The position numbers and the translations under genes were made by a program. Shown here piece by piece: positions 7,143 through 27,384 of a stretch of DNA of 32,000 bases. The notes below the pieces were generated by a model. It was not told where the DNA came from and searched no databases. It saw nothing but the letters and a program-made list of their open reading frames with translations. The stretch is from the NCBI GenBank assembly GCA_038231275.1, contig JBBRLQ010000049.1, positions 9,141 to 41,140 of the forward strand, written 5' to 3'. Positions within the stretch are counted from its first letter, which is position 1. Each line of letters begins with the position of its first letter. Source of the DNA: Polyangiales bacterium (GTDB lineage: Bacteria; Myxococcota_A; Polyangia; Polyangiales; Polyangiaceae).

Positions 7143-10100
7143 ATGCTCAGCCGTTCGCTTCGCACGCGTCACGTCGCACCGTTCGTTCTGTTCGTGGGGG
7201 CGGTCGCCGGATGCGGCGCCGAGAGCCGATCGCGAAACGCGCCTTCCGCGACCGCGATGGACTCGGTGCCGCCCGGCTACCCGCAGATGGAGCCGGGCTC
7301 CGGAGGCGCGGCGCCGTCGCCGATGTCCGCGGCCGAGGCGAAGAAGGCCGACGACGCGTCGCCCAAGAAGCCGGAAGAGACGACGTGGAAGCGCTCGCAG
7401 GTCGCCGCGAACGCGACGCGCCTCATGGTCGGCGAGCGCGAAGAGCTGCCGCTCCGGACGATGCAGGCCAACGTCACGATCGACGGCTTTCGCGCCCGCG
7501 TTCTCATCGACTACGTCTACGACAACGATCGCGATCGGCAGCTCGAGGGGACGTTCCAGCTGCGGTTGCCGGAGGAGGCGTCGCCGTATTTCTTCGCGTT
7601 CGGGGAGAGCACGTTCGAGGCGAAGGCGGCGACGAACGCACCGAGCCCGCAGCCGCTTTTTTTTGCGGTGGCCGAGACGAAGAAGATGGGCGACGGGCCG
7701 CTCGAGATCATGACGGAACGGCAAGCGACGTGGATCCACCCGCGCGAGGCGCGGATGGTGCCGCGCGAGAAGGCGGCGTTCGCGTACGGCGAGACGGTCC
7801 GGCGGCGCGTCGATCCGGCGCTCATGGAATGGGCGGGCGCAGGGGTCTTCAGCGCGCGCGTCTTCCCGCTCGCGGCGCACAAGCTGCATCGCATCGTCGT
7901 TGGGTACGATCTGGATCTCACCCGAATCGGGGATGATCTCGAGGTCCGGTTCGACGTCCCCGAGAAGGCGCCGCGGGCCGTCGTTGACGTGCGCGTGGCC
8001 AAGCTCGCCAACGTCGCGACGCAGACGACGCCGCAAGCGACCGCCACGACCGACGAGAAGCGGCAGTACTTCCACTTCGAGAACCCCAAGGAGCACGCGG
8101 TGAGCGTGCGATTGAAGTCACCCGGCGCGCCTGTGATCGTCGGCAGCGACGCCAAGACCGGCGACTACTTCGCCGCGCAAGTGAAGCCGAATCTCCCTGC
8201 CGGCGCGCCGTCGACGACGAGCGACAGCGCGGTCTTCTTGCTCGACACGTCGCTCAGCTCGAGCCCCGATCGCTTCAACGTGTGGCTGAAGATGATGCGC
8301 ACGGTGCTCGACGCGAATCGGCCCTCGCTGAAGCGCTTCGCGGTCCTCACCTTCGGCGTCGACGCGCGCTGGTACAAGCCCGGCTTCGTCGAGAACACGC
8401 CGGCCAACGTCGACGCGCTCCTCGGCGCGGCGGGGAACCTCGCGCTCGAAGGGGCGACGGACCTCGGCGCGGCGCTGAAAGAGGCGAGCCGACCCGCGTG
8501 GCTCGACGCAAACGGCGGCGGCGCGCGGCGCTACGATCTGTTCCTCTTGTCGGACGGCGCGGCGACGTGGGGCGAAGGAAATCTCTACGCGCTCGGACGA
8601 ACGCTCGCGTCGGGCAGCGCGGGCAGCTTGTTCGCGTACCAGACGGGGCTCGCGGGCACGGACGTCGCGGCTCTCACGCACCTCGCGAGGGAGAGCGGCG
8701 GCGCGGTGTTCTCGGTGACGGGGGAGTCCGAAATCGTGCGCGCGGCGACGGCACATCGCGCGCGGCCGTGGCAGCTCGTGTCGGCGAAGGTCGGCGGCGG
8801 GACCGACGTGCTCTTGGCAGGGCGGCCGAAGGCGATCTTCGCCGGGCAGACGCTCCTCGCGGTCGGTCGCGGCGCGATCCCGGCAGGCTCCGATCTCGTC
8901 CTCACGCTCGAGCGCGACGGGCAGAAAGAGACCGTGAAGACCAAGCTCGGCGCGCCGGTCGCGTCGAAGCTCGCGCCGCGCGCGTACGGTCAAGTCGCCA
9001 CGAGCCAGCTCGAGGAGCTCGAGGCCGCGACCGAGAGCGTGTCCAAGGCGTACGCGACGCACTTTCGCGTGACCGGTCGCACGTGCTCGCTGCTCATGCT
9101 CGAGACCGAGCAGGACTACGAACGCTTCGCGATCCGCCCTGAAGAAGACGCGTTCGTCGTGAAGGGAACGCCGGCGGGAGAGTTGTTCGCGACGACGTTG
9201 AAGCAGACGTACGACACGCTCGGCGATCCGAAGGCGTCGTTCTTCGCGCTCCTCGCCAAGCTAGAAAAGACGCCGGGCGTGAAGCTCCAGGTGCCGGCGT
9301 CGTACAAGATGGCGGTGACGCAAATGCCGGCGTCGTCGTTCGCGGTCGACGCCGCCGCGCTCACGACGAAGCTGAACGACAAGAAGCAGCTCTCCCCTGC
9401 CCTCCTCGACAACCTCGCGAAGCACCAGCTCGACTACGATCGGATCTCCGACGACGCGAAGGCGCGGCTGGCGCAAGGTGGCCCGGGTGACGCGCTGAAG
9501 GCGTTGTCGTCGCTCGTCGAGGAGAACCCTGGCGACGCGGTGCTCGCGCGCGACGTCGGCTTCTCGGCGATGGACCTCGGGCTTCGTCCGCAGGCCTACC
9601 ACTTGTTCCGGCGCGTCGCCGACGTGCGCCCGTACGAGCCGCAGACCTACCGCGCGATGGCGCAGGCGCTTGCGGCGATGGGCAAGACGGATCTCGCGCT
9701 CGCGTACTACGAGATTCCGCTCATCGGCGAGTGGGATCCGCGCTTCGGCGATCTGCGCGCGATCGTCGAGCTCGACTACCTCCGCTTCCTCCGCACGATC
9801 GCGAGCGGCGCGGCGAAGACGAGCGTGCCGGACTACGCCAAGGCGCGCCTCGAGACGCTCGCCGGGAAAATCGGCATGAAGAGCGCCGATCTCGTCGTCA
9901 CCATCACCTGGAACACCGACAACACCGACGTCGATCTCCACGTGACTGAGCCGTCGGGCGAGGAGTGCTTCTACAGCCACCGCCAGACGCGCAGCGGCGG
10001 CGAGCTCACGCGCGACGTGACGCAGGGCTACGGCCCCGAGATGTTCGTACTGAAGCGCGCGCCCTCCGGCCGCTACCTCGTGCGCGCGCACTACTACGCC

Positions 10101-11180: not shown

Positions 11181-12112
11181 GCGAATGGCTTCTCCTCGAC
11201 GCGCGCGCGCGCGTTCTCGATGGTGACGGCCCGATGCCCGAGGCCATGATCCTTGCTCGCGGGGTCCCACGGCAAGGGGGCTCGCTTCGGCACGGAGCCG
11301 GGCGCGGGCAGCGGGAAGATGAGCGAGCGCGCAGAGTGGTGCGACACGCGCCCGGTGACCTTGTGGTTCTCCTGGTGGATGTGCCCGTAGAATACCGTGG
11401 CGTCGCGCCCCTGGAGAAGCTCGATCGCGCGCGCGCCGTCCTTCGTCGTCCACTCCCACTCGGGGTAGAGATCGAACAGCGGTCGATGCGCGAGGACGAC
11501 GAGCGGCGCGCCGGCGGGGACCTTGGCGATCTCGGCCTTGAGCCAGTCGAGCTGCGCGTCGCCGAGCGCGCCCCCGGGGGCTGACGCGTTGTCGAGCGCG
11601 ATGAAGTACACGCCCTTGTGCGAGAACGACTGGGTGAGCGGACCGAACGCTTCCTTGTACGCCTCGCCGCGATCGGGCGACGCGTCGTGCTCGCCGGGGA
11701 GAAAGTAGATCTTCTTCACGGTGAGGCCGCCGACGATCTGTTTGAACTCGGCCATGCGTGCGCGGCGCTCTTTGGCGTCGTCGGTCGTGTGCGTCAGGTC
11801 GCCGGTGAAGACGATGAAGTCCGGCTGCACGGGCGACGCGTTGATCGCCTGCACCGTCTTCTTCAGGGTCATGTCGGCTTCGGGGTTTGGAGGACCCTTG
11901 AAGCCCCAGTGCGTGTCGGACAGCTGGAGGAAGAAGAAGTCTTCTACCTTGGGGGCGACGATGGCCGGCCCGACGGGCGCGACGCCCGACGCGACCTGAG
12001 GCGGAGCCCCGGTCGCCTCCGCGCCCCCGCAACCGACCAGGCCGGACGCGAAGACCACGCCTCCCAAGCCTGCGAGCGCAAGCACGTCACGTCGTCGAAA
12101 TTCTTGGCTCAT
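11177..12112 (-). CDS. Tat-exported calcineurin-like metallophosphoesterase
   Basis: Starts MSQEFRRRDVLALAGLGGVVFASG (twin-arginine signal). Motifs present: LSDTHWG, TGDLTH, PGEHD, LAHRPL, YGHIHQ. GGAGGA lies upstream of the ATG at 12112. Confidence 0.85.
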   Translation of the reverse strand: MSQEFRRRDVLALAGLGGVVFASGLVGCGGAEATGAPPQVASGVAPVGPAIVAPKVEDFFFLQLSDTHWGFKGPPNPEADMTLKKTVQAINASPVQPDFIVFTGDLTHTTDDAKERRARMAEFKQIVGGLTVKKIYFLPGEHDASPDRGEAYKEAFGPLTQSFSHKGVYFIALDNASAPGGALGDAQLDWLKAEIAKVPAGAPLVVLAHRPLFDLYPEWEWTTKDGARAIELLQGRDATVFYGHIHQENHKVTGRVSHHSARSLIFPLPAPGSVPKRAPLPWDPASKDHGLGHRAVTIENARARVEEKPFA

Positions 12113-12149
12113 TCGATCCTCCGCGGTCCCGTTGTCATTCCTTTCACGA

Positions 12150-12174
12150 AACGAAGGGCTGGGGCAATCGTTCC
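12150..12174 (-). promoter_or_regulatory. Candidate ECF-type promoter GGAAC-N16-CGTT driving the metallophosphoesterase operon
   Basis: Minus strand reads GGAAC gattgccccagccctt CGTT. It lies about 35-40 nt upstream of the ATG at 12112 and shares the palindrome GTTCCATGGAAC (12170-12181) with the opposite promoter. Confidence 0.4.
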
Positions 12175-12176
12175 AT

Positions 12177-12202
12177 GGAACCTTCGCGCCCCCCGCCTCG
12201 TT
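12177..12202 (+). promoter_or_regulatory. Candidate autoregulatory ECF-type promoter GGAAC-N17-CGTT upstream of the sigma gene
   Basis: Plus strand reads GGAAC cttcgcgccccccgcct CGTT, which fits the general ECF -35 GGAAC / -10 CGT consensus. Confidence 0.4.
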
Positions 12203-12294
12203 GTGAGTGGCAGCACTTGTGGTCCGATCTCCTGAAGGTCTTTTCTCCGCCGCAACGGCGGACCACGCGGGTCCCGTCTCGGGCTCCGGCGTGA

Positions 12295-12318
12295 TTGGTT
12301 CGAGCGTTGGTTCGAGCG
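12295..12318. repeat. Perfect 12-bp x2 tandem repeat TTGGTTCGAGCG in the sigma-gene leader
   Basis: Read directly from the sequence. It ends 5 nt before the ATG at 12324. Confidence 0.9.
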
Positions 12319-12323
12319 ACGCC

Positions 12324-12875
12324 ATGTGGTATCGAGCCGACTCGATGCCGACGATCCCGCCGGGGCAGCGGTCGATGCAGTCGGACGCGCTCGCGCACGC
12401 GGACGCGCTCTTCCGCCTCGCCTATCACCTCGCCGGGGACCACGCCGACGCCGAGGATCTCGTGCAGGAGACGTACGCCCGCGCCTTCGGGGCGAGCGCG
12501 CAGTTCACCACGGGCACGAACCTCCGCGCGTGGCTCTGCCGGATTTTGAGGAACACCTACGTGGACGGCTACCGGCGCGCGCGCGCCAACCCCGTGCGGG
12601 GAGAGCTCGACGAGAACGCGCCCGACTCCCCAAAGGGCGAGCCGCTCCGGGGAGACGAAGAGCTCGAGCGCCTGCGCGGCGTCGTGGCGGAGGACATCGA
12701 GGCGGCGCTCCAGACGTTGTCGATCGACGCGCGCACGGTCGTGCTGCTCGATCTCGAGGGCTTCACGGAGACCGAGCTCGCGACCGTCCTCGGCTGCGCG
12801 GTGGGGACGATCAAATCGCGGCTGACGCGGGCGCGAGCGGCCCTGCGCGCCGAGCTGGCGGAGTACGCGAGGTGA
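12324..12875 (+). CDS. ECF (sigma-70 family group 4) RNA polymerase sigma factor
   Basis: Region 2: DAEDLVQETYARAF...NLRAWLCRILRNTYVDGYRR. Region 4: VVLLDLEGFTETELATVLGCAVGTIKSRLTRARAAL. The start is uncertain (ATG 12324, 12345 or 12375). Low GC3 upstream argues against the track start at 12207. Confidence 0.85.
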   Translation: MWYRADSMPTIPPGQRSMQSDALAHADALFRLAYHLAGDHADAEDLVQETYARAFGASAQFTTGTNLRAWLCRILRNTYVDGYRRARANPVRGELDENAPDSPKGEPLRGDEELERLRGVVAEDIEAALQTLSIDARTVVLLDLEGFTETELATVLGCAVGTIKSRLTRARAALRAELAEYAR

Positions 12876-12880
12876 GCAAC

Positions 12881-13642
12881 ATGAAGTGCGAAGTTGCAAG
12901 GACCCTTCTCCTCGCGCGCCGGCAAAAAACGCTGGACGACGACGCCACCGCCGCGGTCACGGAGCACCTCGCCGAGTGCGATCGCTGCCGGCGCGAAGAC
13001 GCCGCCGACGCCGAGCTCACGCGACTTCTCGAGCGCATCCCGCAGCGCAAGGCCCCTGCTTCGTTGAAGCGCGCGTTGGACGCGCGCTGGTCCGGAGTCG
13101 AGCGACGCCCCCGCGCGACGATCGCACGCACCGTTGCCGCCGTGGCTGCCGGCGCCGCGCTCGCCGCCAGCGCGCTCCTCGTCTGGCGCGGGCGCACGCA
13201 TTCCGAGGCGATGTTCGGCGAGGCGGTGAACGATCACCTGCGCCTCCTCTACGCCGAGCACCCGCTCGAGGTGGAGAGCGGCGGCGTGCACCAGGTGAAG
13301 CCGTGGTTCTCGGGGCGCATCGACTTCGCGCCGGTCGTCGCGTTCGGAGGTGACGAGGACTTCCCGCTCCAGGGCGGCGCGGTCGCCTACTTCCTCGATC
13401 GCAAGGCCGCCGCGTACGAGTACAAGCGCCGCCTCCACCCCATCACGCTCTTCGTGTTCCGGGCCGACGGCCTGGCGTGGCCCACCGCGACCCGCGCGAT
13501 CGGCCACGCGCGCGGCGCCTCCGACACGATGCGCGGCTTCCACGTCCTCATCTGGAGGGACGGCGATCTCGGCTACGCGCTCGTCTCCGATCTCGACGAG
13601 CGCGAGCTCGGCACCCTCGCCGCGAAAATCGCCGGTCCCTGA
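12881..13642 (+). CDS. Anti-sigma factor (zf-HC2 N-terminus, one TM helix, periplasmic domain)
   Basis: MKCEVARTLL...HLAECDRC gives an H-x3-C-x2-C motif. TM segment: IARTVAAVAAGAALAASALLVW. GAGGTGA lies upstream of the ATG and 5 nt after the sigma stop. Only the C-terminal part of track ORF 12326..13642 is real. Confidence 0.8.
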   Translation: MKCEVARTLLLARRQKTLDDDATAAVTEHLAECDRCRREDAADAELTRLLERIPQRKAPASLKRALDARWSGVERRPRATIARTVAAVAAGAALAASALLVWRGRTHSEAMFGEAVNDHLRLLYAEHPLEVESGGVHQVKPWFSGRIDFAPVVAFGGDEDFPLQGGAVAYFLDRKAAAYEYKRRLHPITLFVFRADGLAWPTATRAIGHARGASDTMRGFHVLIWRDGDLGYALVSDLDERELGTLAAKIAGP

Positions 13643-13711
13643 GGCTTCGAAGACGGGTCTTCGCAGGAAGGAGGCCAGGGCGCCCCACCTCTCGTAGGAT
13701 GGCCGAGCGGC

Positions 13712-15118
13712 ATGAGCACGAGCAGACGGATTTGCGCGATCCTGGCGCTCTGCCTGGCCTCGCGTGCAGCGCGCGCGGACGACGGTCCGACGACCGACGT
13801 GCCGTCCGACATCCAGGGTGGGGCACCCGAAGGCCTCGGCCGCAAGCAGCGACTCCGGGACGATGACCTCGCGCGCAAGCGAGAGGGCGGTTACTTCACC
13901 GGCCTCCCGCTCGCCAACTACGACCACGACGTCGGCTTCGGCTTCGGCGCGCGCGTCTACTACTTCGACAACGGCAAGCGCACCGAGCCGCGCTTCGCGT
14001 ACGTGCCCTACGAGCAGCGCATCTTCGCGCAGGGCTACGCGTCGACGGGCGGTCTGCAGTACCACTGGCTCGACTACGACTCGCCGCACTTCTTGGGATC
14101 GCTCTTTCGCGTGCGCGCGAGCTTCGAGTTCCAGCAGAACATCGCGCAAAATTATTTCGGCGTCGGCACGCGCTCGATGCAGCCGCTGTCGTTCCCCGGC
14201 TCGCCCGAGAGCTTCGCGCACGCCTCCGAGTACGACGCGCGCCTCCGCACCGTGCAGGCCGACGGCTCGACGTACGCGCTCTACGACAAGTACTTCGGAA
14301 GGCGCCCGCAGCTCGCGTTCGCGGCGGAGCGTCACCTCCTCGGCGGCCTCGTGCGCGCGCTCTTCGGCCTCGGATTTTCGAACACGGCGATCCGGCAGTA
14401 CAGCGGCAAGGTCACCGACGCCGACGGCGCAGGCGGAACCGTGCAGGCGCCCGAGGCTCCCACGCGACTCTCCCTCGACTGCGCGGCGCGACGCATCGTC
14501 GGCTGCGACGGCGGTTGGGACAACGTGCTGCGCCTCGGCCTCTCGCTGGATACCCGGGATTTCGAGCCGGATCCGAACTCCGGAATCTACGCGGAGCTCT
14601 CGACCGAGTACGGCCTCCGCGGCCTCGGCTCCAACTACGCGTACGCGCGCGTGATGGGCTCGGTGCGCGGCTTCTACAGCCCGATCCCGAAGCTCGCCGA
14701 TCTCGTCGTCGCCACGCGCGGCCTCTACGAAGTGCAGACCCAGGGCACGCCGTTCTTCTCGATGAGCAACCTGCCGTTCATCGACGACAACCACACCGGC
14801 CTCGGCGGCTTCCGCTCGCTGCGCGGCTTCAAGGACAGCCGCTTCGTCGGCCCGGTCATCGTGCTCGCCAACCTGGAGCTACGTTGGACGTTCGTGCGCT
14901 TCAAGGCGCTGGCCCAGAGCTTCGGGCTCATGGCGGTGCCGTTCATGGACATCGGCCGCGTCTTCGACAACGTCGCGACGACGAGCCTCAAGGACTGGAA
15001 GCGCACGCAGGGCGGCGGCTTTCGCATCGCCTGGAACGAGGCGACGATCATCATGGCCGACTACGGCTTTAGCGACGAGGACGCCGGCCTCTACGTGAAC
15101 TTCAACCACATCTTCTGA
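13712..15118 (+). CDS. Omp85/BamA-TamA superfamily-like outer-membrane beta-barrel protein
   Basis: Signal peptide MSTSRRICAILALCLASRAARA|DD. Alternating beta-strand pattern, Gly/aromatic-rich. C-terminal ...GFRIAWNEATIIMADYGFSDEDAGLYVNFNHIF ends in Phe. Confidence 0.7.
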   Translation: MSTSRRICAILALCLASRAARADDGPTTDVPSDIQGGAPEGLGRKQRLRDDDLARKREGGYFTGLPLANYDHDVGFGFGARVYYFDNGKRTEPRFAYVPYEQRIFAQGYASTGGLQYHWLDYDSPHFLGSLFRVRASFEFQQNIAQNYFGVGTRSMQPLSFPGSPESFAHASEYDARLRTVQADGSTYALYDKYFGRRPQLAFAAERHLLGGLVRALFGLGFSNTAIRQYSGKVTDADGAGGTVQAPEAPTRLSLDCAARRIVGCDGGWDNVLRLGLSLDTRDFEPDPNSGIYAELSTEYGLRGLGSNYAYARVMGSVRGFYSPIPKLADLVVATRGLYEVQTQGTPFFSMSNLPFIDDNHTGLGGFRSLRGFKDSRFVGPVIVLANLELRWTFVRFKALAQSFGLMAVPFMDIGRVFDNVATTSLKDWKRTQGGGFRIAWNEATIIMADYGFSDEDAGLYVNFNHIF

Positions 15119-17753: not shown

Positions 17754-19145
17754 TCACAGGCACGGACGCGTCGGCAAGACGAGAGGCGGCAGCGGCGCCT
17801 GCGTGAAGTCGAAGGCGCCGAAGAGATCGTTGGCCTGCCCGTCCTGCGCGGCGGGATCGATGTCGCTCAGCGTCCGCTTCGCGCCGAAGATCTTCCCGAT
17901 GAAGCGCGGGATGCTCGCCTGCTCCGCGGTCTCCTTCAGCACGAAGTGAGGGCGCGCGTACGGCGATATCACGATGAGCGGGACGCGGAAGCCGAGCCCG
18001 TACGGCTTGGACTTGTCGCACCCGTATTGCCGGGGCGGCGGCACGTGATCGTACCAGCCGCCATAGTCGTCCATCGTGAAGAGGACGGCGGTGTCCTTCC
18101 AGTAGTCGCTGCCCATGAGCTTGTTGAGCTTGGTGACGGTCCAGTTCTCGCCGGCGCACACGCTGCCGACTTGCGGGTGCTCGTCGTCGAGATCCTGATC
18201 GACGAGCCAGCTCACGTTGGGCAGCGTGTGGTTGTCGATGTCGGACTCGAACTCGGTGACGTTGACCACGTTCTTCCATCCGGCTCCGTTGCGGACGCCG
18301 TCGACCGCGTCGAACATCGACCAGATCTCCGGCAGGACGTAGAAGTTGGTGCCGTAGAACTTCCAGCTCACGTCGCCGGGAAGGATGTCCGGCACCGTCG
18401 GGATCTTGAAGCAGGGGAAGACTTGCTTGGACGAGCACGTCGCCTGATCGTCGATCGGGAGGCGCGCGTCGGGCGACTGATCGCAGCCCCAGTAGGCGCT
18501 CGTCACGTTGTCGGGGTTGCTCGTCGCCCAGCCGGCCTGCGCCGCGAGGACGAAAAGGTGGCCGGGGAAGCTCGGACCGAGGACGTTGGCGAAGAAGTGA
18601 TCGCCGAGCGTGAACGCGCGCGCGTACGCCCAGTAGTTGGGGATGTCGGCCTCTTGGTACTGCGCGTACGCGAGGGCGCTGGCGCTGGCGGAGCCGCCGG
18701 GCAGGTCCCAGCCGTTCATCGCGCCGGCGTTCCAATTGATGAGCGCGCCGGGGTGGTCGTGATCGATGTCGCTCGGCGTGCGATCGGGCGCGCGCCCGCA
18801 CGCGAAGGTGGCGCCGTCGTGCTTGGTGCAGGTCGTCGTCCCCTCGGCGCCGGGAAACGAGCCGAAGTAGTTGTCGAAGGTGTGGTTCTCTTTGACGACG
18901 ACGACGATGTGCTTGATGGGGTACGCGGACGTCGGCCGCGGCGCGGCGTCGGGCAGCGCAGCATCCGCGTTCGAAGCGTCCGTCGACCCTGCGTCGGGGC
19001 CCGCCTCTCCGGCGCCCGAATCACCGCCAGCGCCTCCTTCAGAGGGCGCGGCGCTCGGATCCGCGCCGGGCGAACCGCCGCCGCAGCCCACGACCCATGC
19101 GGTCAGGAAGAAGGCAGCGAGCCGCGGGGCGGGAAGTATTTGCAT
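17754..19145 (-). CDS. Phosphoesterase family lipoprotein (phospholipase C / acid phosphatase AcpA-like)
   Basis: Lipobox VVGC. IKHIVVVVKENHTFDNYFGSFPG is the hallmark N-terminal motif of the phosphoesterase family. Also ...FTMDDYGGWYDHVPPP. Confidence 0.85.
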   Translation of the reverse strand: MQILPAPRLAAFFLTAWVVGCGGGSPGADPSAAPSEGGAGGDSGAGEAGPDAGSTDASNADAALPDAAPRPTSAYPIKHIVVVVKENHTFDNYFGSFPGAEGTTTCTKHDGATFACGRAPDRTPSDIDHDHPGALINWNAGAMNGWDLPGGSASASALAYAQYQEADIPNYWAYARAFTLGDHFFANVLGPSFPGHLFVLAAQAGWATSNPDNVTSAYWGCDQSPDARLPIDDQATCSSKQVFPCFKIPTVPDILPGDVSWKFYGTNFYVLPEIWSMFDAVDGVRNGAGWKNVVNVTEFESDIDNHTLPNVSWLVDQDLDDEHPQVGSVCAGENWTVTKLNKLMGSDYWKDTAVLFTMDDYGGWYDHVPPPRQYGCDKSKPYGLGFRVPLIVISPYARPHFVLKETAEQASIPRFIGKIFGAKRTLSDIDPAAQDGQANDLFGAFDFTQAPLPPLVLPTRPCL

Positions 19146-19173
19146 TGCAAGTGCAAATTCACGCGGCGACGGG

Positions 19174-19199
19174 CGCGGGGCAACCGAATTCGCCCCGCG
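19174..19199 (-). other. GC-rich hairpin (8-bp stem, 10-nt loop) between two co-oriented genes
   Basis: CGCGGGGC-aaccgaattc-GCCCCGCG. No U-tract follows on the minus strand, so any terminator or attenuator role is uncertain. Confidence 0.35.
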
Positions 19200-19250
19200 A
19201 GACGCCCGGGTGACGGCGCCGCCTCCGTCATCCTCGTCGGCCGGCCGGCC

Positions 19251-19982
19251 TCAGGGGCAGTACGATTTCACGTAGTTGTAGTACGTGGTGCACGTCGCGT
19301 CGTTGCCCGCCGCCGAGTCGTGCGCCTGCTGGCAGCCGCTCTTGATGTTGGCGTCGGCGATCTTGTCGCAACACGTCTGGAGCGTCGCGCACGTCACGCC
19401 GCCGCCGCCGCTGGAGCCGCTGGTGCCGCTGGCGCCGCTCGTGCCGCTGGCGCCGCTACTGCCGCTCGAGCCGGTCGTCATGCACGCGGGCTTGGTGCAG
19501 TTCGCGCCGCTCACGCACGTGCTGAGCTTGACCGAGCAGTTCTGACACCCGGTGTCGGGCGTCGGGCACTTGACGATGCACGCGTTGTCGCCGCAGGCGC
19601 ACTTCGAGATGCAGCCGATGTACGCCGAGCACGAGCCGCCGGTGAAGTCGCCGCTCTTGTAGGCTGCGCCGTAGCACTCCTTGTAGGTGGTGTCGCACGC
19701 GGCGGCGACGCAGTTGTCGTACGTGTCGACGTCGGCCTGCGAGCAGCTCGACTGGGTCGAATTGGGGCAGCTCTTGAAGCCGCCGCTGGACGAGCCCGAG
19801 GTGCCGGAGGTACCCGACGTGCCGGAAGTGCCTGAGGTTCCGGAGGTGCCGGCGGTGCCCGAGGTGCCGGAGGTGCCCGAGGTGCCGGACGACGAGCTCG
19901 TGGTGGTGGAGCTGCACGCGAAGACGAGGCCGAGCGTGAGCGCGGCGGTGGTGATGATGGTCTTCCGAGTGGTGATGATCAT
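19251..19982 (-). CDS. Lipoprotein with (G-T-S)n stalk and two Cys-rich modules separated by a second S/G linker
   Basis: Start at MIITTRKTIITTAALTLGLVFAC (GGAGG 7 nt upstream). GTSGTSGTSGTAGTSGTSGTSGTSGTSGTSG, then a 20-Cys module, then GSSGSSGASGTSGASGTSGSSGGGG, then a second Cys module ending ...YVKSYCP. Confidence 0.7.
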   Translation of the reverse strand: MIITTRKTIITTAALTLGLVFACSSTTTSSSSGTSGTSGTSGTAGTSGTSGTSGTSGTSGTSGSSSGGFKSCPNSTQSSCSQADVDTYDNCVAAACDTTYKECYGAAYKSGDFTGGSCSAYIGCISKCACGDNACIVKCPTPDTGCQNCSVKLSTCVSGANCTKPACMTTGSSGSSGASGTSGASGTSGSSGGGGVTCATLQTCCDKIADANIKSGCQQAHDSAAGNDATCTTYYNYVKSYCP

Positions 19983-20072
19983 GGGAACCTCCGAGGTCGG
20001 TTGGGACGGGACCGGACACGGACCCGGGAACCGTGGCACTTAACCCCCTTCGGGACCCCGCGGCAACGCCTT

Positions 20073-20699
20073 TTACCGAGGATTCTTGAAGGACGACGCG
20101 GCCGCGCGGACCTTGGCGACGATCTCGGCGGGCGACGCGCGATCGGTCATGTTCTCGCCGATCTGCTTCCAGAGGATGGCGCGATCTTGGGAGACGATGA
20201 AGACGGCGGGCACTGCGATATCGCGCCCCTCCATCGCCACGCCGTACGCGGCGGCCACGTGCAGATCGGCGTCGCCGAGGAGGCGGAAGTGGAGATCGAG
20301 CTCCTTGGCGAGCTTCACCGACTCGTCGGCGGCGTCGACGCTGATGGCGACGAGGCTACCGCCCTGCGCTTCGATCTCTCCGCGAACACTCTCCAGCTGC
20401 CCGAGCTGGCGGCGACAGAAGGGTCACCAGAAGCCGCGGTAGAAGACGAGGACCGCGGGCCCGCGTGCGGTGAGCGCGGCGAGGGTGGTGGTGGCGCCGC
20501 TCTGATCCTCGAGAGAAAAATCCGGCGCGTGCGCGGTGGCCACGACCGATCCCGCGCGGCGCGATATCGGCTTGTACACACCGATCGCGACGACGATCGC
20601 GAGGAGGGCGACGATGCCGAAGATCGCGAGCGCGATGATCCGGAGGACGCGCCGCTTTCGCGGTTTCTTCGGCGGCGTTTCGGCGGCGTCGGTCGTCAC
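20073..20699 (-). CDS. Candidate selenoprotein: membrane-anchored PRX_like2/AhpC-TSA-type thiol-disulfide oxidoreductase with in-frame UGA (Sec) at 20426-20424
   Basis: GTG at 20699 gives (M)TTDAAETPPKKPRKRRVLRIIALAIFGIVALLAIVVAIGVY (one TM) ...GPAVLVFYRGFW-TGA-PFCRRQLGQLESVRGEIEAQGGSLVAISVDAADESVKLAKELDLHF...FKNPR*. The frame is unbroken after the TGA and keeps high GC3. Track ORFs 20424..21071 and 20073..20318 are in the same frame. The TGA aligns with the first Cys of FYRGGWCPYC in the paralog at 26378..27130. Confidence 0.65.
20393..20409 (-). promoter_or_regulatory. Candidate bacterial SECIS hairpin downstream of the in-frame UGA
   Basis: mRNA reads UGA-N14-CCAGCU-CGGGC-AGCUGG: a 6-bp stem and a G-rich 5-nt loop, with loop Gs about 22-24 nt after the UGA. 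A further CCG/CGG pairing (mRNA +15..17 with +45..47) is possible. Not energy-evaluated. Confidence 0.45.
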
Positions 20700-20731
20700 G
20701 CGAGGCAGGTTACCACGAGGCTCCGACGCGC

Positions 20732-22267
20732 TCAGGCGAAGAGATCGGCGACCTTGCGCGCGTCGCCGGCTTCCATCGCTGCTTCGACCTCGAGGCTGAG
20801 CGAGTCGTCGCCGACCGTCGCCACCGCGAGCACGCGCCCTGCGCGCTCGAAGGCCGCGGCGTACTTTCCGGACGCAAGCGTGCCGCGCGTACGGATCTTG
20901 TCCCACCCCTCGGCGTGCCCGACGTAGTTGATGGTGGTGTCGTAGTGCGCGCTCCAGAAGAAGGGCACGTCGCGGAAAGGAGCGCCGTCGCCGAGCATCG
21001 CGCGCGCGACCGCTTGGCCTTGGCGCTCCGCGTAGGCCCAGTGCTCGATGCGGACGAGCGCGCCCGACCATGCCTCGGGCAAGCGCGCGATGTCGCCCGC
21101 CGCGTACACGCCTTCCGCGCTGGTGCGCAGCTTCTCGTCGACGACAACGCCGCGGTCCACCCGAAGCCCCGCGTTCTCCGCGAGCGCGACGTTGGGCGTG
21201 ACGCCGACGCCGAGCACCACGAAGTCGGCGGCGAGGCGCGTCCCGCTCTCGAGCACGACCGCGTCGTCGGGGATCTGCGACGGCTTCTGCTCCATGTGGA
21301 ACCGCACGCCGTTCTTTTCGTGCAGCGCCTTCACGAAGGCGCCGATCTCGTCGCCGACGACGCGCGCGAGCGGGATCTTCTCTGCTCCCACGACATCCAC
21401 CTCGACGCCTCGCGCGCGGAGCGACGCCGCGACCTCGAGCCCGATGAAGCTCGCGCCGATCACGACCGCGCGCGCTCCGCTCGTTGCTTTCGCGACGATC
21501 GCGCGCGAGTCGGCGAGCGTGCGGAGGACGAAGACGTTCGCAGACTCCGCGCCCGGCACGTCGAGCGTTCGCGGAGCGGATCCGGTCGCGAGGAGGAGCG
21601 CGCCGTATGCGAGGCGTCGTCCGCTCGTCAAGGTCACGCTCTGCGCGTTCGTGTCGAGCAGCGCCGCCGCGTCCCCCATCACGAGCTCCACGCCGTGCTC
21701 GCGATAGAACGCCGCGTCACGCAGCGGAATCCACTCCTCCGGCGCCTTCCCCGCGAGGTAGTCCTTCGAGAGGTTCGGCCGATCGACGGGCCCGGGCGGC
21801 TCATCGGCGACGAGCGCGATCGCCCCCACGTACCCGAGACGACGCAGCCCCTCCGCGCATGCCGCCCCCGCCGCGCCGCCGCCGACGATGACGACCGAGC
21901 TCGGCCCCTTCGCCGCGCCCGGCTTCTCGTCCACGCGCTTCTTCCCGACGCGCACGAGCGCTCCCGCGCGCACGACCTCGAAGCACGCGAGCGGCGTCAG
22001 CGCCGGCGCCGCCGCGCGCCCCGTCGCGAGATCGAAGCACGCGTGGTGCCACGGACAACGCACGGTGCCGCCCACGACGAGCCCCTCCGCGAGCGGCCCC
22101 GAATAATGCGTGCAGGTTGCACTCGTCGCGTGCACGGCCTCGCCGACGCGCACGAGCATCACGGCCTCGCCGCCCGCGTGCCCGAGGAGCGGCCGCCCCT
22201 CTTCGAGCCTGCTCGCGTCGACCCCCGCGGACAGATCCGGCCCCGTCAGCTCCGCTGCTTGCCCCAT
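20732..22267 (-). CDS. Rieske [2Fe-2S] domain fused to FAD/NAD(P)-dependent pyridine nucleotide-disulfide oxidoreductase (ferredoxin-reductase / AIF-like)
   Basis: Rieske ligands: CTHYSGPL ... CPWHHACF. Dinucleotide folds: VVIVGGGAAGAACAE and AVVIGASFIGLEVAASL, plus AAGDIA. AGGAG lies 7 nt before the ATG at 22267. Confidence 0.9.
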   Translation of the reverse strand: MGQAAELTGPDLSAGVDASRLEEGRPLLGHAGGEAVMLVRVGEAVHATSATCTHYSGPLAEGLVVGGTVRCPWHHACFDLATGRAAAPALTPLACFEVVRAGALVRVGKKRVDEKPGAAKGPSSVVIVGGGAAGAACAEGLRRLGYVGAIALVADEPPGPVDRPNLSKDYLAGKAPEEWIPLRDAAFYREHGVELVMGDAAALLDTNAQSVTLTSGRRLAYGALLLATGSAPRTLDVPGAESANVFVLRTLADSRAIVAKATSGARAVVIGASFIGLEVAASLRARGVEVDVVGAEKIPLARVVGDEIGAFVKALHEKNGVRFHMEQKPSQIPDDAVVLESGTRLAADFVVLGVGVTPNVALAENAGLRVDRGVVVDEKLRTSAEGVYAAGDIARLPEAWSGALVRIEHWAYAERQGQAVARAMLGDGAPFRDVPFFWSAHYDTTINYVGHAEGWDKIRTRGTLASGKYAAAFERAGRVLAVATVGDDSLSLEVEAAMEAGDARKVADLFA

Positions 22268-22372: not shown

Positions 22373-22733
<361 letters not shown>

Positions 22734-23166: not shown

Positions 23167-24852
23167 TCAGTGGAACTTTCGATAGTGGAGGAGCGCGGCG
23201 AGGTTGTCCTCTTGCCAGAAGCTCTCCGAGAGGAACGTCGCGTCGCGGCAGCGAGTCCACACCCATTTGTCGAACTGGGCGAGCGGTGCCCACCCCTCGC
23301 AGCCGACGTTGGCGTTGTCGGTCATCGTGGGGGTCGGCCTTCCATCGATGCCCTTCGAGAGCAGGTTGCGCGGACCGTTGGGGTTTTGAAAGTCGTACGT
23401 CCAGATCCTGCGCAAGAACGTGTTCGCGAAGCGCACGAACAGCGGCGTGCTCAGCCCGAGGCTCTCGCTCCGGCCGGCGCGCGTGAGCATGGCGTTCAGC
23501 AGGATCTTGTCCTCCAGGAGCGTCGCCAGCGAGCCGAGCTCGAAGCCGGCGTGCGCCGTATCTTGGAGCGTGTGCTTCCCCAAGATCCCGATCCCCGGCT
23601 CTTGAGTGTCCCACTCGAAGTACGGCGTGCCGTCGTCGAGCGTCTTGGTGCGAAGGTGCTTGTCGTAGAAGGTGAAGTTCTTGGCGATGAGACGCGGAGC
23701 CTCATTCACACCGAGGTTGACGCGCCCCGCGTTGTTCGCGCTCGCGCGGTAGAGCGCGCTGTCGCTCGCGATGGCGGCCTCGGCGAGCGCTTTCATCATC
23801 GAGAGGTTCTCGTTGTACGCGATGGGCTTGCCCGCCGTGTCGCGGTAGCCGCTGCACGCGTGTTGAAGCTTGTCGTCGCCGGTGTTGCACGCGAGCTGCG
23901 CGTACGTCGCAGGGACGGTGAAATACGCCCACGGGTCGCCGTCGGTGAGGTGCATCTCGTGGCGGTAGCCCGCATACGAGTCGAGCGTCGCCGTGATGAA
24001 GCGGATGGCCTCGGAGGCGTACGTGCACCCGCCAAATCCGTTGGGAAAATGGGGCGAAGGCGCTTTTCGGGTGTGCGCGCAGGACGTCGCCTGGAGCGCG
24101 GGGTTGTCGGTCACTCGGCGCGCGAACGCCGCCATGGGGTACGTGAGCAAGCCGGTCGTGACGACGTCGGTGTTCCACTTGCCGTCGCGGTCGGGCGTGC
24201 ACCCGCCCCACGAGGGCATCAGGCGCCCGCGAAAGGCGTCGGCGGGCCGATAGCTGGTGACGCAATGCGGGAACGGAGCGTGGAACAGACGCAGGTCGTC
24301 TCGGTTCGCGAGAAACACGTCGGCCATGCGGCGCAATCGCTCGAGATATTTTCCGGCGCGCGCTGCGTCGACCGGCGCGACGAGATCGTAGAGGTGCACG
24401 AGCGCGACGGTGCGACGGGCGAAGTACCACACCGGCGGCAGCACTCCGACCTTGAACGCGTTGTCGAACTCCGTCTGGATCCCCGCTGCCTCGTCGTCGT
24501 CCGAGTTCGAAAAGAAGCGCGCCCAGACCCACTCGGAGTCGGAGACGATGGTCGCGCTGTCGTTCGCGTCGCCGATGGTGAACCCCGTCGGCCCTTTCGA
24601 CGGCCCCGGCGTGATCGGCGGCGGCAGCGTGCCGCCCGGCCGGTGCGGCGGCGGCGGTGCGGTGGTCGCGGGCAGGGGCGTCCTCGGGCCGAGGTCGGGG
24701 CGGCCTCCCGGCTGCGCGTCGCAGATGCCGCTCACACACGTCGCCGCGATCCCGGCGAGGAGCGACACGAAGGGCGCGTATCGGCTTCGGTCATTGCGCC
24801 GCCGCGGTATCTGGCTGCTTCCGCTGCTGCTGCTGCTGCGTGACGTACTCAT
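23167..24852 (-). CDS. Hypothetical secreted 561-aa protein (no family recognised)
   Basis: Start at MSTSRSSSSSGSSQIPRRRNDRSRYAPFVSLLAGIAATCVSGICDA (signal-like), then a Pro-rich stretch, then about 450 aa of normal composition with high GC3. The upstream 380 aa of track ORF 23167..25992 are Arg/Pro-rich shadow. Confidence 0.65.
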   Translation of the reverse strand: MSTSRSSSSSGSSQIPRRRNDRSRYAPFVSLLAGIAATCVSGICDAQPGGRPDLGPRTPLPATTAPPPPHRPGGTLPPPITPGPSKGPTGFTIGDANDSATIVSDSEWVWARFFSNSDDDEAAGIQTEFDNAFKVGVLPPVWYFARRTVALVHLYDLVAPVDAARAGKYLERLRRMADVFLANRDDLRLFHAPFPHCVTSYRPADAFRGRLMPSWGGCTPDRDGKWNTDVVTTGLLTYPMAAFARRVTDNPALQATSCAHTRKAPSPHFPNGFGGCTYASEAIRFITATLDSYAGYRHEMHLTDGDPWAYFTVPATYAQLACNTGDDKLQHACSGYRDTAGKPIAYNENLSMMKALAEAAIASDSALYRASANNAGRVNLGVNEAPRLIAKNFTFYDKHLRTKTLDDGTPYFEWDTQEPGIGILGKHTLQDTAHAGFELGSLATLLEDKILLNAMLTRAGRSESLGLSTPLFVRFANTFLRRIWTYDFQNPNGPRNLLSKGIDGRPTPTMTDNANVGCEGWAPLAQFDKWVWTRCRDATFLSESFWQEDNLAALLHYRKFH

Positions 24853-25116
24853 TGGATGGCCCCCATGGTTCGAGACGGACGGAGCACGGCGTGTGCCACA
24901 CGCAACCCCGCGAAGGTGCACGGAAGGCCGCCGGATCGCAACGCCCACCGCGTTGCATGCCACGTGGGCGCTCACATGCAGAGGCCGTTGACGCAGGCCA
25001 GCATGCTCGCCGAGCAGCTCACGCACGCCTGCGCGAGGACGACGATCTCCGCTGAGGCGCAAGGACGCTCCGCGCCTCATTGACGGGCGCCTCCTTCGGA
25101 CGGGATACTTTCGCCG

Positions 25117-25494
25117 ATGATCGCGGCGCGCATTCGAGCCAGCATCGAGGCCTACGTCGCGGCGTGGAACGAGCGCGACGCCGCGCAGCGGATTCGGCTC
25201 ATCGAGCAAGCCTGCGCCGAGGACCTGCGCATGCGAACGCCGGGGAAGCGGATCGACGGGCGGGCGGAGCTCGATGCCCTGATCGCCGACTTCCAAGTGC
25301 GGCGCCCGGGCGAGCGCGCGGTCCTCTTGAGCATCATCGACGTCCAGGGCCACGTCTTTCGGTTTGCCGGGAGAGTCGAGGGCGGGGCGATTACGCCTGG
25401 AGGCAACGCGTTCGACGCCGGGGAGTGCGACGACGACGGGCGGATCCGCGTTCTCCTCTCCTTCGTCGGCGCCGACCTCCCTTCCCGGACGTAG
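25117..25494 (+). CDS. SnoaL/NTF2-like fold small protein
   Basis: MIAARIRASIEAYVAAWNERDAAQRIRLIEQACAEDL... is the typical opening of SnoaL-like polyketide-cyclase-fold proteins. 125 aa. Confidence 0.65.
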   Translation: MIAARIRASIEAYVAAWNERDAAQRIRLIEQACAEDLRMRTPGKRIDGRAELDALIADFQVRRPGERAVLLSIIDVQGHVFRFAGRVEGGAITPGGNAFDAGECDDDGRIRVLLSFVGADLPSRT

Positions 25495-25711
25495 ACACCC
25501 CAATCGTGTTGCGGTCCGTGAGATTCCTGCGGAAATGGCGCTCGTGCTGCGAGTCAACGCCGAGGACGGGCTCGCGGCGAAGGTGCCGGTGCAGCGTCGA
25601 TGCCGCAACGTTGCGGCGCCGATGCCGCAGTGTCCCCTCGAATCTCGCCGAACCAGCGGGCGGGCGAGGCTGGCCGCCAGCTTGCAAAGAGGGGCGTCGG
25701 CGAGGTGACTC

Positions 25712-26302
25712 ATGGCAACTTTTTTTTGGCGTGCGGCTCCCACGGCGGCTGTCCTCGGAATCGTCATGGCGTGCGGCGGCGCGTCGGCGCCGACGGCGTC
25801 CGGCCCTCTGGGCGACGGCGGCCAAGACGACGGCGGGACGATCGCGGATTCCGGCGGCGGCGGCGACGGGGGCAGGCTCGGCGACGACGGCGGCGGCTTG
25901 CTGGACGGCAGCACGGGCGGGCCCGACGCCAGCGCCAACGATGGAGCCGTGGGCGACGGCGGGCGCCCTGACGCGAGCGGCACGACGTGCAACCTCGACG
26001 GCGGCGCGTTCCCGCTCGACTCGTTCGCGAAGGTCTGCCTCGGCGACGGTACCTGTCTCAGCGAGCTTCACGAGGTCAGCTGCTGCGGCGCTAGGCTTGC
26101 GGTGGGGATCGATCAAAGCGCAAAGGACGACTTCGCCAAAGCGGAGAAGGCGTGGGAAGCGACGTGTCCGCAGTGCGAGTGCCCCATCGACCCCGGCGCC
26201 GTCGCGGAGGACGGCAAGACCGGCCCCGCCGCCAAGGTCCAAGTGAAATGCGACTTCAGCGGCCCTTCGCTCAACGGAAAGTGCAAGACCTTCTTCCCGT
26301 GA
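25712..26302 (+). CDS. Lipoprotein with Asp/Gly-rich linker and Cys-containing C-terminal domain
   Basis: GAGGTG lies upstream. MATFFWRAAPTAAVLGIVMAC has a lipobox. D/G-rich low complexity follows. The C-terminal domain has 10 Cys, including ATCPQCECP. Confidence 0.7.
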   Translation: MATFFWRAAPTAAVLGIVMACGGASAPTASGPLGDGGQDDGGTIADSGGGGDGGRLGDDGGGLLDGSTGGPDASANDGAVGDGGRPDASGTTCNLDGGAFPLDSFAKVCLGDGTCLSELHEVSCCGARLAVGIDQSAKDDFAKAEKAWEATCPQCECPIDPGAVAEDGKTGPAAKVQVKCDFSGPSLNGKCKTFFP

Positions 26303-26377: not shown

Positions 26378-27130
26378 CTATTTCGTCAGCTTTGCGGCAT
26401 CGATCGCCGCCAGGATCTGCTCCGTCGACGGCCGCACCGTGTACGTCGGATCGGAGTGCGCCCACCGGACGCGGCCGGTGGTGTCGATGAGAAAGAGCGC
26501 CGGAATGGCGATGACGTGGTGTGTCTTGCCGGAGTGGGCCTCGAGATCGACGCCGTACCCTTTGTACTTTGCGTACTCGGCGGCATCGAGGTGCTTCGCG
26601 ACCTTGAATCCGTCGATGAACGCGAGACGGTCGTCGCTCAAGACAGGAAACGGAATCGTGAACGTCGCGTTGGTCTTCGCTTCGTTCTCCGGCGTGTCGA
26701 CGCTGACTGCGACGGGCGTGACGCCGCGCTTCGTGTACTCGCCATAGGCTTTCACGAGTGAGTGGATTTCGAAATTGCAGTACGGGCACCATCCGCCACG
26801 ATAAAACGCCAGCAGCACGGGCCCCTTCGCATACAACGTCGACAGCGCGATCTCCTTACCGTCGAGGTCCTTCGCGTGGGCGTCCGGGACGCGTTCGCCG
26901 ACGGGGATGCCGGTGCCTGGCGCGAGGACGCCAACGGTCGTCGGAACCGTTGTCTCCTTCCACGCCGGCGGAGCGCTGCTCGCCGGCGCAGACGCGGAGG
27001 CCGGCGGAGCGGTGCTCGCCGGCGCAGACGCGGAGGCCCGAGGCGCGCCGCCCGATCCGCGATCGCATGCGGCCAGCGAGAGACTCGCCGCGAGAAGACA
27101 AGCAACGAGTGGTTTGCACGTGACGATCAT
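26378..27130 (-). CDS. PRX_like2/AhpC-TSA-type redoxin lipoprotein (Cys paralog of the candidate selenoprotein)
   Basis: MIVTCKPLVACLLAASLSLAAC has a lipobox (alternative ATG at 27166). An Ala/Ser/Pro linker follows. Redoxin core: GPVLLAFYRGGWCPYCNFEIHSLVKAYGEY...VAVSVDTPE...IPALFLIDTTGRVRW. Confidence 0.85.
   Translation of the reverse strand: MIVTCKPLVACLLAASLSLAACDRGSGGAPRASASAPASTAPPASASAPASSAPPAWKETTVPTTVGVLAPGTGIPVGERVPDAHAKDLDGKEIALSTLYAKGPVLLAFYRGGWCPYCNFEIHSLVKAYGEYTKRGVTPVAVSVDTPENEAKTNATFTIPFPVLSDDRLAFIDGFKVAKHLDAAEYAKYKGYGVDLEAHSGKTHHVIAIPALFLIDTTGRVRWAHSDPTYTVRPSTEQILAAIDAAKLTK
26965..27036. repeat. 36-bp x2 tandem duplication (1 mismatch) inside the linker of the redoxin lipoprotein
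   Basis: ccggcggagcgctgctcgccggcgcagacgcggagg / ccggcggagcggtgctcgccggcgcagacgcggagg. It encodes the duplicated SASAPAS(T/S)APPA. Confidence 0.9.
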
Positions 27131-27384
27131 CTCCGCGCATACGCAGGCCGCGCCAAACGGTTTCATACTGCTGAGGCGGTTTCCCTAAAGCGCCGGGAGA
27201 CCGCTCCTCTGACGGGGAGTCGCATGTTTCGTGGGGCCATCCTTCGCACAAAAGCTTCGTCTCCGCGGTGCCGCGCGTCCCGGTTCGTGATGCGGCCCGC
27301 GGCAGGCGTTCCCACGCAGCACCCGAGGCGCCCGCGGATCGCGCAGCATCCGGCATGGCACCGACCTTGCTCCGGGCGGCTCCG

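Follow-up and report, generated by a model that had tools for sequence, protein, structure and literature searches.

A redoxin gene on the reverse strand of a Polyangiales contig (20699..20073) very probably carries a genuine selenocysteine (Sec) codon and has been mis-split at that position, as judged from sequence comparisons. The gene lies in what we call the window, the whole 32,000-nucleotide (32-kb) stretch of DNA that was analysed. This is neither a new mechanism nor a new family: the selenoprotein family to which the gene relates has already been described and is widespread in bacteria.

A single redoxin gene with an in-frame TGA

Positions 20073..20699 (-) form a single AhpC/TSA-fold gene of 208 codons, in which codon 92 is TGA (20424..20426, -). 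Directly 5' of this codon the frame encodes ...AVLVFYRGFW (...GPAVLVFYRGFW), and 3' of it the same frame continues for 116 sense codons (PFCRRQLGQLES...FKNPR) to a TAA at 20075-20073. When read through, the C-terminal half begins PFCRRQLGQLESVRG and ends FKNPR, and the motif spanning the codon is FYRGFW-U-PFC. Composition of the post-TGA stretch is of the coding type, with GC1/2/3 of 0.72/0.44/0.87. An earlier reading made from the letters of the window and their translations (hereafter, the sequence-only reading) had reported the TGA at 20426-20424 after AVLVFYRGFW, as well as 116 stop-free codons ending in TAA with a strong third-position G/C bias, and each of these features is present. It had also delimited the first half as an ORF at 20424..21071. 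That open frame does end at the TGA, but 21071 is no more than its far limit, in the part that overlaps the gene upstream. The true start codon is the GTG at 20699, which leaves a gap of 32 nt to the stop of that gene at 20732.

The sequence-only reading had further proposed that the gene was split by the gene caller, and in the source record it is indeed cut into ORFs of 91 and 81 aa that are stored as separate products. The 91-aa product begins at the same GTG (20699), and the 81-aa product is a C-terminal fragment beginning 35 codons 3' of the TGA. Taken at face value, the gene caller's annotation describes two separate genes, one for a 91-aa N-terminal protein and another for an independently translated 81-aa C-terminal protein, a reading to which we give next to no probability. 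Neither fragment makes up a whole thioredoxin fold. The 81-aa fragment has no redox motif and misses part of the Pfam domain, and in all relatives the codons between the TGA and the start of that fragment keep the frame and are conserved. The continuity of the frame goes beyond chance: when read through, the product aligns with Pfam AhpC-TSA (PF00578) over the TGA, from model positions 3 to 121 of 124 (E = 2.5e-26; 92.5 bits, cut-off 26), and a single tblastx HSP to a Cys homolog likewise extends over the TGA (157 aa, 59% identity). A redoxin continuous over the TGA, with a UxxC version of the redox centre, had been claimed from the sequence alone, and its continuity is borne out by the Pfam match and the HSP.

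Elsewhere in the window TGA serves most genes as an ordinary stop, so codon 92 represents local recoding rather than a variant genetic code. This codon is also the sole credible in-frame TGA in the window, which has a GC content of 68.7%; two further candidates were set aside, both being antisense to a large ORF and without a redox motif.

Conservation of the TGA in related genes

Across the W91-[U/C]-P93-x-C95 column, the TGA is aligned with the first Cys of the CxxC in Cys homologs, giving a Sec/Cys pair. A scan for FYRGxW-TGA-x[FY]C, in which each GTDB species was represented by a single genome, found at least 120 loci from many phyla, compared with about 4 expected by chance (our own estimate, from the information content of the pattern). 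All of the loci listed have AhpC/TSA-like sequence on both sides of the codon, and most have ~105–150 open codons after it. Whether orthologs carry Cys or TGA at this column had been put forward as a check by the sequence-only reading, and within the same clade TGA is found in locus L003 (50% identity), in the cultured Polyangium sp. y55x31 (L049, 48%) and in a Nannocystaceae MAG (L081, 39%). L124–L134 carry it too, as do L135 and L136, two close relatives considered below; in a Geobacter MAG (L034) the motif reads FYRGAW-U-PYC. A codon-neutral scan of metagenomes, for which the post-TGA part of the protein alone served as the query, yielded 11 related loci, 9 with TGA at the column. In the GOS survey, Cys forms exceeded Sec forms by ~10:1 (2,740 Cys versus 225 Sec). 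When closer relatives were sought in JGI metagenomes, the best had 42% identity, and comparison of the window with L049, L081, L003 and L001 for synteny showed only the gene itself in common.

Protein databases can conceal such genes behind Trp variants. P0002, the second-closest homolog in the protein databases (50% identity; JGI), is stored with Trp at this position, whereas its DNA (L003, 97-618) has TGA; the Trp is probably due to the contig having been called under genetic code 4.

Independent assemblies bear on the codon itself. A sequencing or assembly error, in which the true codon would be TGC or TGT, might be suspected in a metagenome-derived contig of 41 kb, but a Logan assembly of SRR19962015 (L137) is identical to the window over 2 kb (100% identity, TGA included), and TGA is kept in two ENA assemblies from other samples (L135 and L136) at 92% DNA identity. 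The probability of such an error is therefore close to nil.

The same two ENA assemblies permit an estimate of selection on either side of the codon. Between them and the window, there are no indels over 515 nt of the gene, and pN/pS is 0.06 upstream of the TGA (binomial P = 0.002) and 0.27 downstream (P = 0.0096, on 14 substitutions only). In the 3' flank, by contrast, identity is 89.9% and 10 gaps open within 691 nt; the 48 nt directly after the TGA are identical in L135 and L136. The low downstream pN/pS and the lack of indels argue that the lineage has, in recent times, translated the gene through the TGA, and this comparison indicates that the post-TGA part has been under protein-level selection over that period.

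These data weigh on two further explanations. The gene could be a pseudogene in which a recent TGC/TGT to TGA nonsense mutation struck a Cys-form redoxin whose downstream frame has not yet decayed. This is compatible with the TGT at the position of codon 92 in the nearest full-length homolog, with the chance persistence of open frames in 69% GC DNA and with a nearby Cys paralog that could compensate for the loss. It is nevertheless highly improbable, given that the TGA is common to relatives at 92% DNA identity with protein-level constraint downstream and to orthologs at 39–50% identity, and that a covarying, Sec-associated hairpin lies 3' of the codon (see below). The second explanation is a fossil selenoprotein gene, whose lineage formerly decoded UGA but has since lost the Sec machinery, leaving termination at codon 92 or leaky read-through. 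In its favour, Sec use is patchy among Myxococcota, no sel genes are seen in the 32-kb window, and the closest homolog (P0001) is already a Cys form. Set against these points are the downstream constraint at 92% DNA identity, which suggests recent translation through the TGA, and the identical 48 nt that follow it, and we consider a fossil gene improbable. The sequence-only reading had preferred a functional Sec codon to a nonsense mutation and had named frame decay in close relatives as the mark of a pseudogene. No such decay was seen, and its preference is supported by the conservation of the TGA, the constraint downstream, the independent assembly and the covarying hairpin.

A SECIS-type hairpin downstream of the UGA

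A bSECIS-type hairpin, CCAGCU-CGGGC-AGCUGG, begins 14 nt after the UGA (20393..20409, -), placed by its fold, by the register of a helix that covaries in 24 Sec forms and by a shared core 15-mer. Published criteria for bSECIS elements specify a loop of 3–9 nt, a stem of 4–16 bp, a G at loop position 1 or 2, a UGA–loop spacing of 16–37 nt and an MFE of at most -7.5 kcal/mol. The window hairpin falls within this geometry, having a 6-bp stem and, at a spacing of 20 nt from the UGA, a 5-nt loop (CGGGC) with G second. The bare hairpin has an energy of -7.4 kcal/mol, which is borderline relative to -7.5, and the value with a predicted lower stem is -14.3 kcal/mol, the apical hairpin and lower stem together forming an extended SECIS region of 41 nt (20378..20418, -). 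The lower stem is no better than that of shuffles and is not conserved in relatives; the apical hairpin is the sole well-supported part of the region. Stability of the RNA as a whole was discarded as SECIS evidence, the 73-nt fold being no better than dinucleotide shuffles and the z score of the window sequence against synonymous shuffles being +0.78; position-specific tests of the hairpin and of covariation took its place. Rfam gave no SECIS match, either at the gathering threshold or up to E = 10.

The hairpin is encoded by Q-L-G-Q-L, and RNA and amino-acid constraints were separated by restricting the covariation analysis to 24 Sec-form genes with QLG[QE]L. In this set the helix is 95% paired, with compensatory changes at 3 of 7 pairs. 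Pair 21:31 is G-C in 17 genes, A-U in 7 and mixed in none, a purely synonymous switch from CAG/CUG to CAA/UUG; at pair 18:34, 17 genes have G-C and 5 have C-G; and at pair 24:28, 14 have C-G and 4 have G-C. None of 500 shuffles reached the observed covariation, and shifting the register abolishes pairing.

Across the family, a correctly spaced SECIS-like hairpin is present in 57% of 121 members, compared with 17% of synonymous-codon shuffles. Of the 120 listed Sec forms, 16 have QLG[QE]L after the motif, versus 0 of 119 Cys forms (P = 2e-5). The exact 15-mer of the hairpin, CAGCTCGGGCAGCTG, recurs in six other Sec forms (L124–L127, L129 and L131). The window variant is weaker, owing to a C.C mismatch at the loop-closing position that produces the 5-nt loop, and 6.7% of synonymous recodings of the window gene recreate the hairpin. 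P0001, the closest homolog (57% identity; L001, 3680-4213), is a Cys form with TGT that keeps a hairpin, CCAGCUC-GCG-GAGCUGG, of -10 kcal/mol. This may be a fossil SECIS left by a Sec-to-Cys change. As a Cys homolog carries it, the hairpin alone does not discriminate Sec from Cys forms within the clade, and we dropped it for that use. The neighbours of the P0001 locus are CMD/AhpD-like, ECF sigma, MerR, MerC and thioredoxin genes.

On a reading with functional Sec insertion, the hairpin, which lies within the coding sequence and presents its G-containing apical loop from 20 nt after the UGA, would recruit SelB carrying Sec-tRNA(Sec), and UGA codon 92 would be decoded as selenocysteine.

Fold, redox centre and topology

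The gene would encode one 208-residue thioredoxin-fold oxidoreductase of the AhpC/TSA ‘Prx-like’ group, with an N-terminal membrane anchor. Its AhpC/TSA (thioredoxin-fold) domain covers residues 56–175 (20175..20534, -), as supported by PF00578, PF08534 and sequence similarity to PDB entries of Bcp, PrxQ and ResA, the best matches being 2cx3 (E = 1.5e-12) and 5epf. A hydropathy scan placed the N-terminal hydrophobic anchor at residues ~18–42 (20574..20648, -), where a basic stretch, KKPRKRR, precedes a hydrophobic helix of ~23 residues. The N-terminus is predicted to face the cytoplasm (N-in), which would put the redox domain outside it. In orthologs, the membrane anchor is replaced by lipoprotein-type signal peptides ending in Cys; since this protein has an anchor and its orthologs have such signals, the redoxin clade is probably extracytoplasmic.

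Candidate Sec U92, the N-terminal position of the UxxC, aligns with the Cys of homologs and with the first Cys of the WCPHC of ResA. Its putative resolving partner, Cys95, is encoded by TGT (20415..20417, -), occupies an invariant column and aligns with the peroxidatic Cys of Bcp/PrxQ (2cx3, 5epf). The sequence-only reading had placed Sec at the catalytic Cys of a redoxin. This applies with reference to the first Cys of a ResA-like CxxC, but relative to true peroxiredoxins U92 occupies the Thr/Ser position and Cys95 the peroxidatic one. From the alignment, the redox centre is of the UxxC thiol:disulfide type and not the TxxU type of Sec-peroxiredoxins. In the product, U92-x-x-C95 would form the redox centre. 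Sec, placed as in ResA/TlpA, would be its exposed nucleophile and would form a selenenylsulfide with Cys95 as the substrate, a disulfide or a peroxide, is reduced, probably in an extracytoplasmic location.

Comparison with known redoxin families

The nearest described system is the Prx-like thiol:disulfide oxidoreductase family (PF00578; UxxC or UxxU), a prokaryotic selenoprotein family ‘predicted with high confidence’. Its selenoproteins were first predicted in Geobacter, Syntrophus and Desulfotalea and have been known for about two decades, and, as ‘Prx-like 1’, the family ranks among the commonest in the GOS selenoproteome. We found no biochemical characterization of any Prx-like UxxC family member in the literature. 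Shared with the window gene are the AhpC/TSA fold, Sec as the first residue of UxxC, a SECIS hairpin within the coding sequence after the UGA and many Cys homologs; the window copy differs in coming from high-GC Polyangia and in having an N-terminal membrane anchor. On these sequence characters, the window gene appears to be a member of the family, showing every testable feature (PF00578, the Sec/Cys pair, the conserved TGA and a bSECIS).

Other redoxins resemble the product less closely. ResA, TlpA and DsbE (WCxxC) share the thioredoxin fold and a membrane anchor or lipoprotein signal, and their W-C-P-x-C aligns residue for residue, with Sec in place of the nucleophilic N-terminal Cys. The FYRGxW context and domain length of the window protein, however, are of the AhpC/TSA type. 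NCBIfam scores are far below the cut-offs for both ResA (58.6 versus 170) and TlpA (30.3 versus 230), which places the protein outside these two families. Bcp/PrxQ proteins have the same overall fold and provide the best PDB sequence matches. In true Prx selenoproteins (TxxU, PxxxTxxU), Sec replaces the peroxidatic Cys, whereas in the window protein it lies three residues earlier, at the Ser/Thr of SPVC/TPGC, with Cys95 at the peroxidatic position; the protein does not belong with them. The best NCBIfam match is to the SelL-related NF040769 (E = 8e-18), which has a Prx-like fold and a redox motif in the same place. We rejected membership of this group, as the match reaches 64.7 bits where the cut-off is 120 and is confined to model positions 2-100 of 173.

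Genomic neighbourhood

Upstream of the redoxin, at 20732..22267 (-), Pfam matches identify a 511-aa Rieske [2Fe-2S] and FAD/NAD(P) pyridine-nucleotide-disulfide oxidoreductase, which may be co-transcribed with it. This ‘AIF3-like’ protein has very many homologs at 60–70% identity across phyla, the best named relatives being from Polyangiales and Polyangiaceae MAGs (62–65% identity), and the adjacent redoxin is found in this lineage only. We rejected a role for the oxidoreductase as reductant or as conserved partner in an operon, since homologs at 65–70% identity lack the pairing. A divergent tmRNA gene (22373-22733, +; Rfam, 158.5 bits; tag peptide ANDNAIALAA) lies ~100 nt upstream of the oxidoreductase–redoxin pair.

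Just downstream of the redoxin, 19251-20039 (-) encodes a Cys-rich putative secreted protein or lipoprotein with Ser/Gly/Thr repeats and no Pfam match, and this region is indel-rich between the window and L135. Very long open frames at 23167-26067 (-) and 17946-19835 (+) overlap real genes or run antisense to them, a common situation in 69% GC DNA; the first of these, with 966 codons, is putative and has no Pfam match. The Cys paralog that the sequence-only reading had noted ~6 kb away was found at 26378..27166 (-), with the same fold and the motif FYRGGWCPYC, and has no SECIS-like hairpin after the motif.

Sec machinery and lineage context

Genes for SelA, SelB, SelD and tRNA-Sec are all absent from the 32-kb window. 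At another locus (L129, 8431-15083), a Sec-form redoxin (TGA just before 10001) whose hairpin core is identical to that of the window lies within a Sec gene cluster, together with genes for a SelD-like protein (8431-9519, +), a CoA-transferase (-, between the redoxin and tRNA-Sec), tRNA-Sec (11607-11700, -), SelB (11767-13683, -) and SelA (13683-15083, -). This arrangement lends indirect support to Sec use by the window gene. Among Myxococcota, Sec use is documented for Haliangium and Plesiocystis (Polyangia-type) and for Myxococcus but is patchy, and Sorangium and Chondromyces are absent from the list of Sec users. A search of the literature on Sec in Polyangia found nothing relevant.

Redoxins only 27–32% identical to the window protein (L124–L134) contain a recurring module, U-PFCRRQLGQL (UGA CCN UUY UGY CGN MGN CAG CUC GGG CAG CUG), preceded by differing pre-Sec motifs, FYRGFW-U, RSVDW-U and LIRGFA-U (for example, L125 ~1952, L128 ~338 and L132 ~3391). 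One tentative idea, which we regard as unlikely, is that recombination or gene conversion carries a ‘Sec codon + SECIS’ cassette from one redoxin paralog to another, turning Cys forms into Sec forms. Alternatively, each SECIS evolved in place, or the SECIS imposes the peptide.

Implications

The main value of the finding is a corrected annotation and a marker of Sec use in the lineage. A selenoprotein with Sec in its active site escapes protein-level analyses when, as here, it is split or when, as in the JGI homolog, its TGA is rendered as Trp. A Sec codon at this position implies that the Polyangia-type source decodes Sec, and few selenoproteins have been reported from Polyangia. If the assignment is true, Sec use would extend to an exported, membrane-anchored enzyme of aerobic soil Polyangia.
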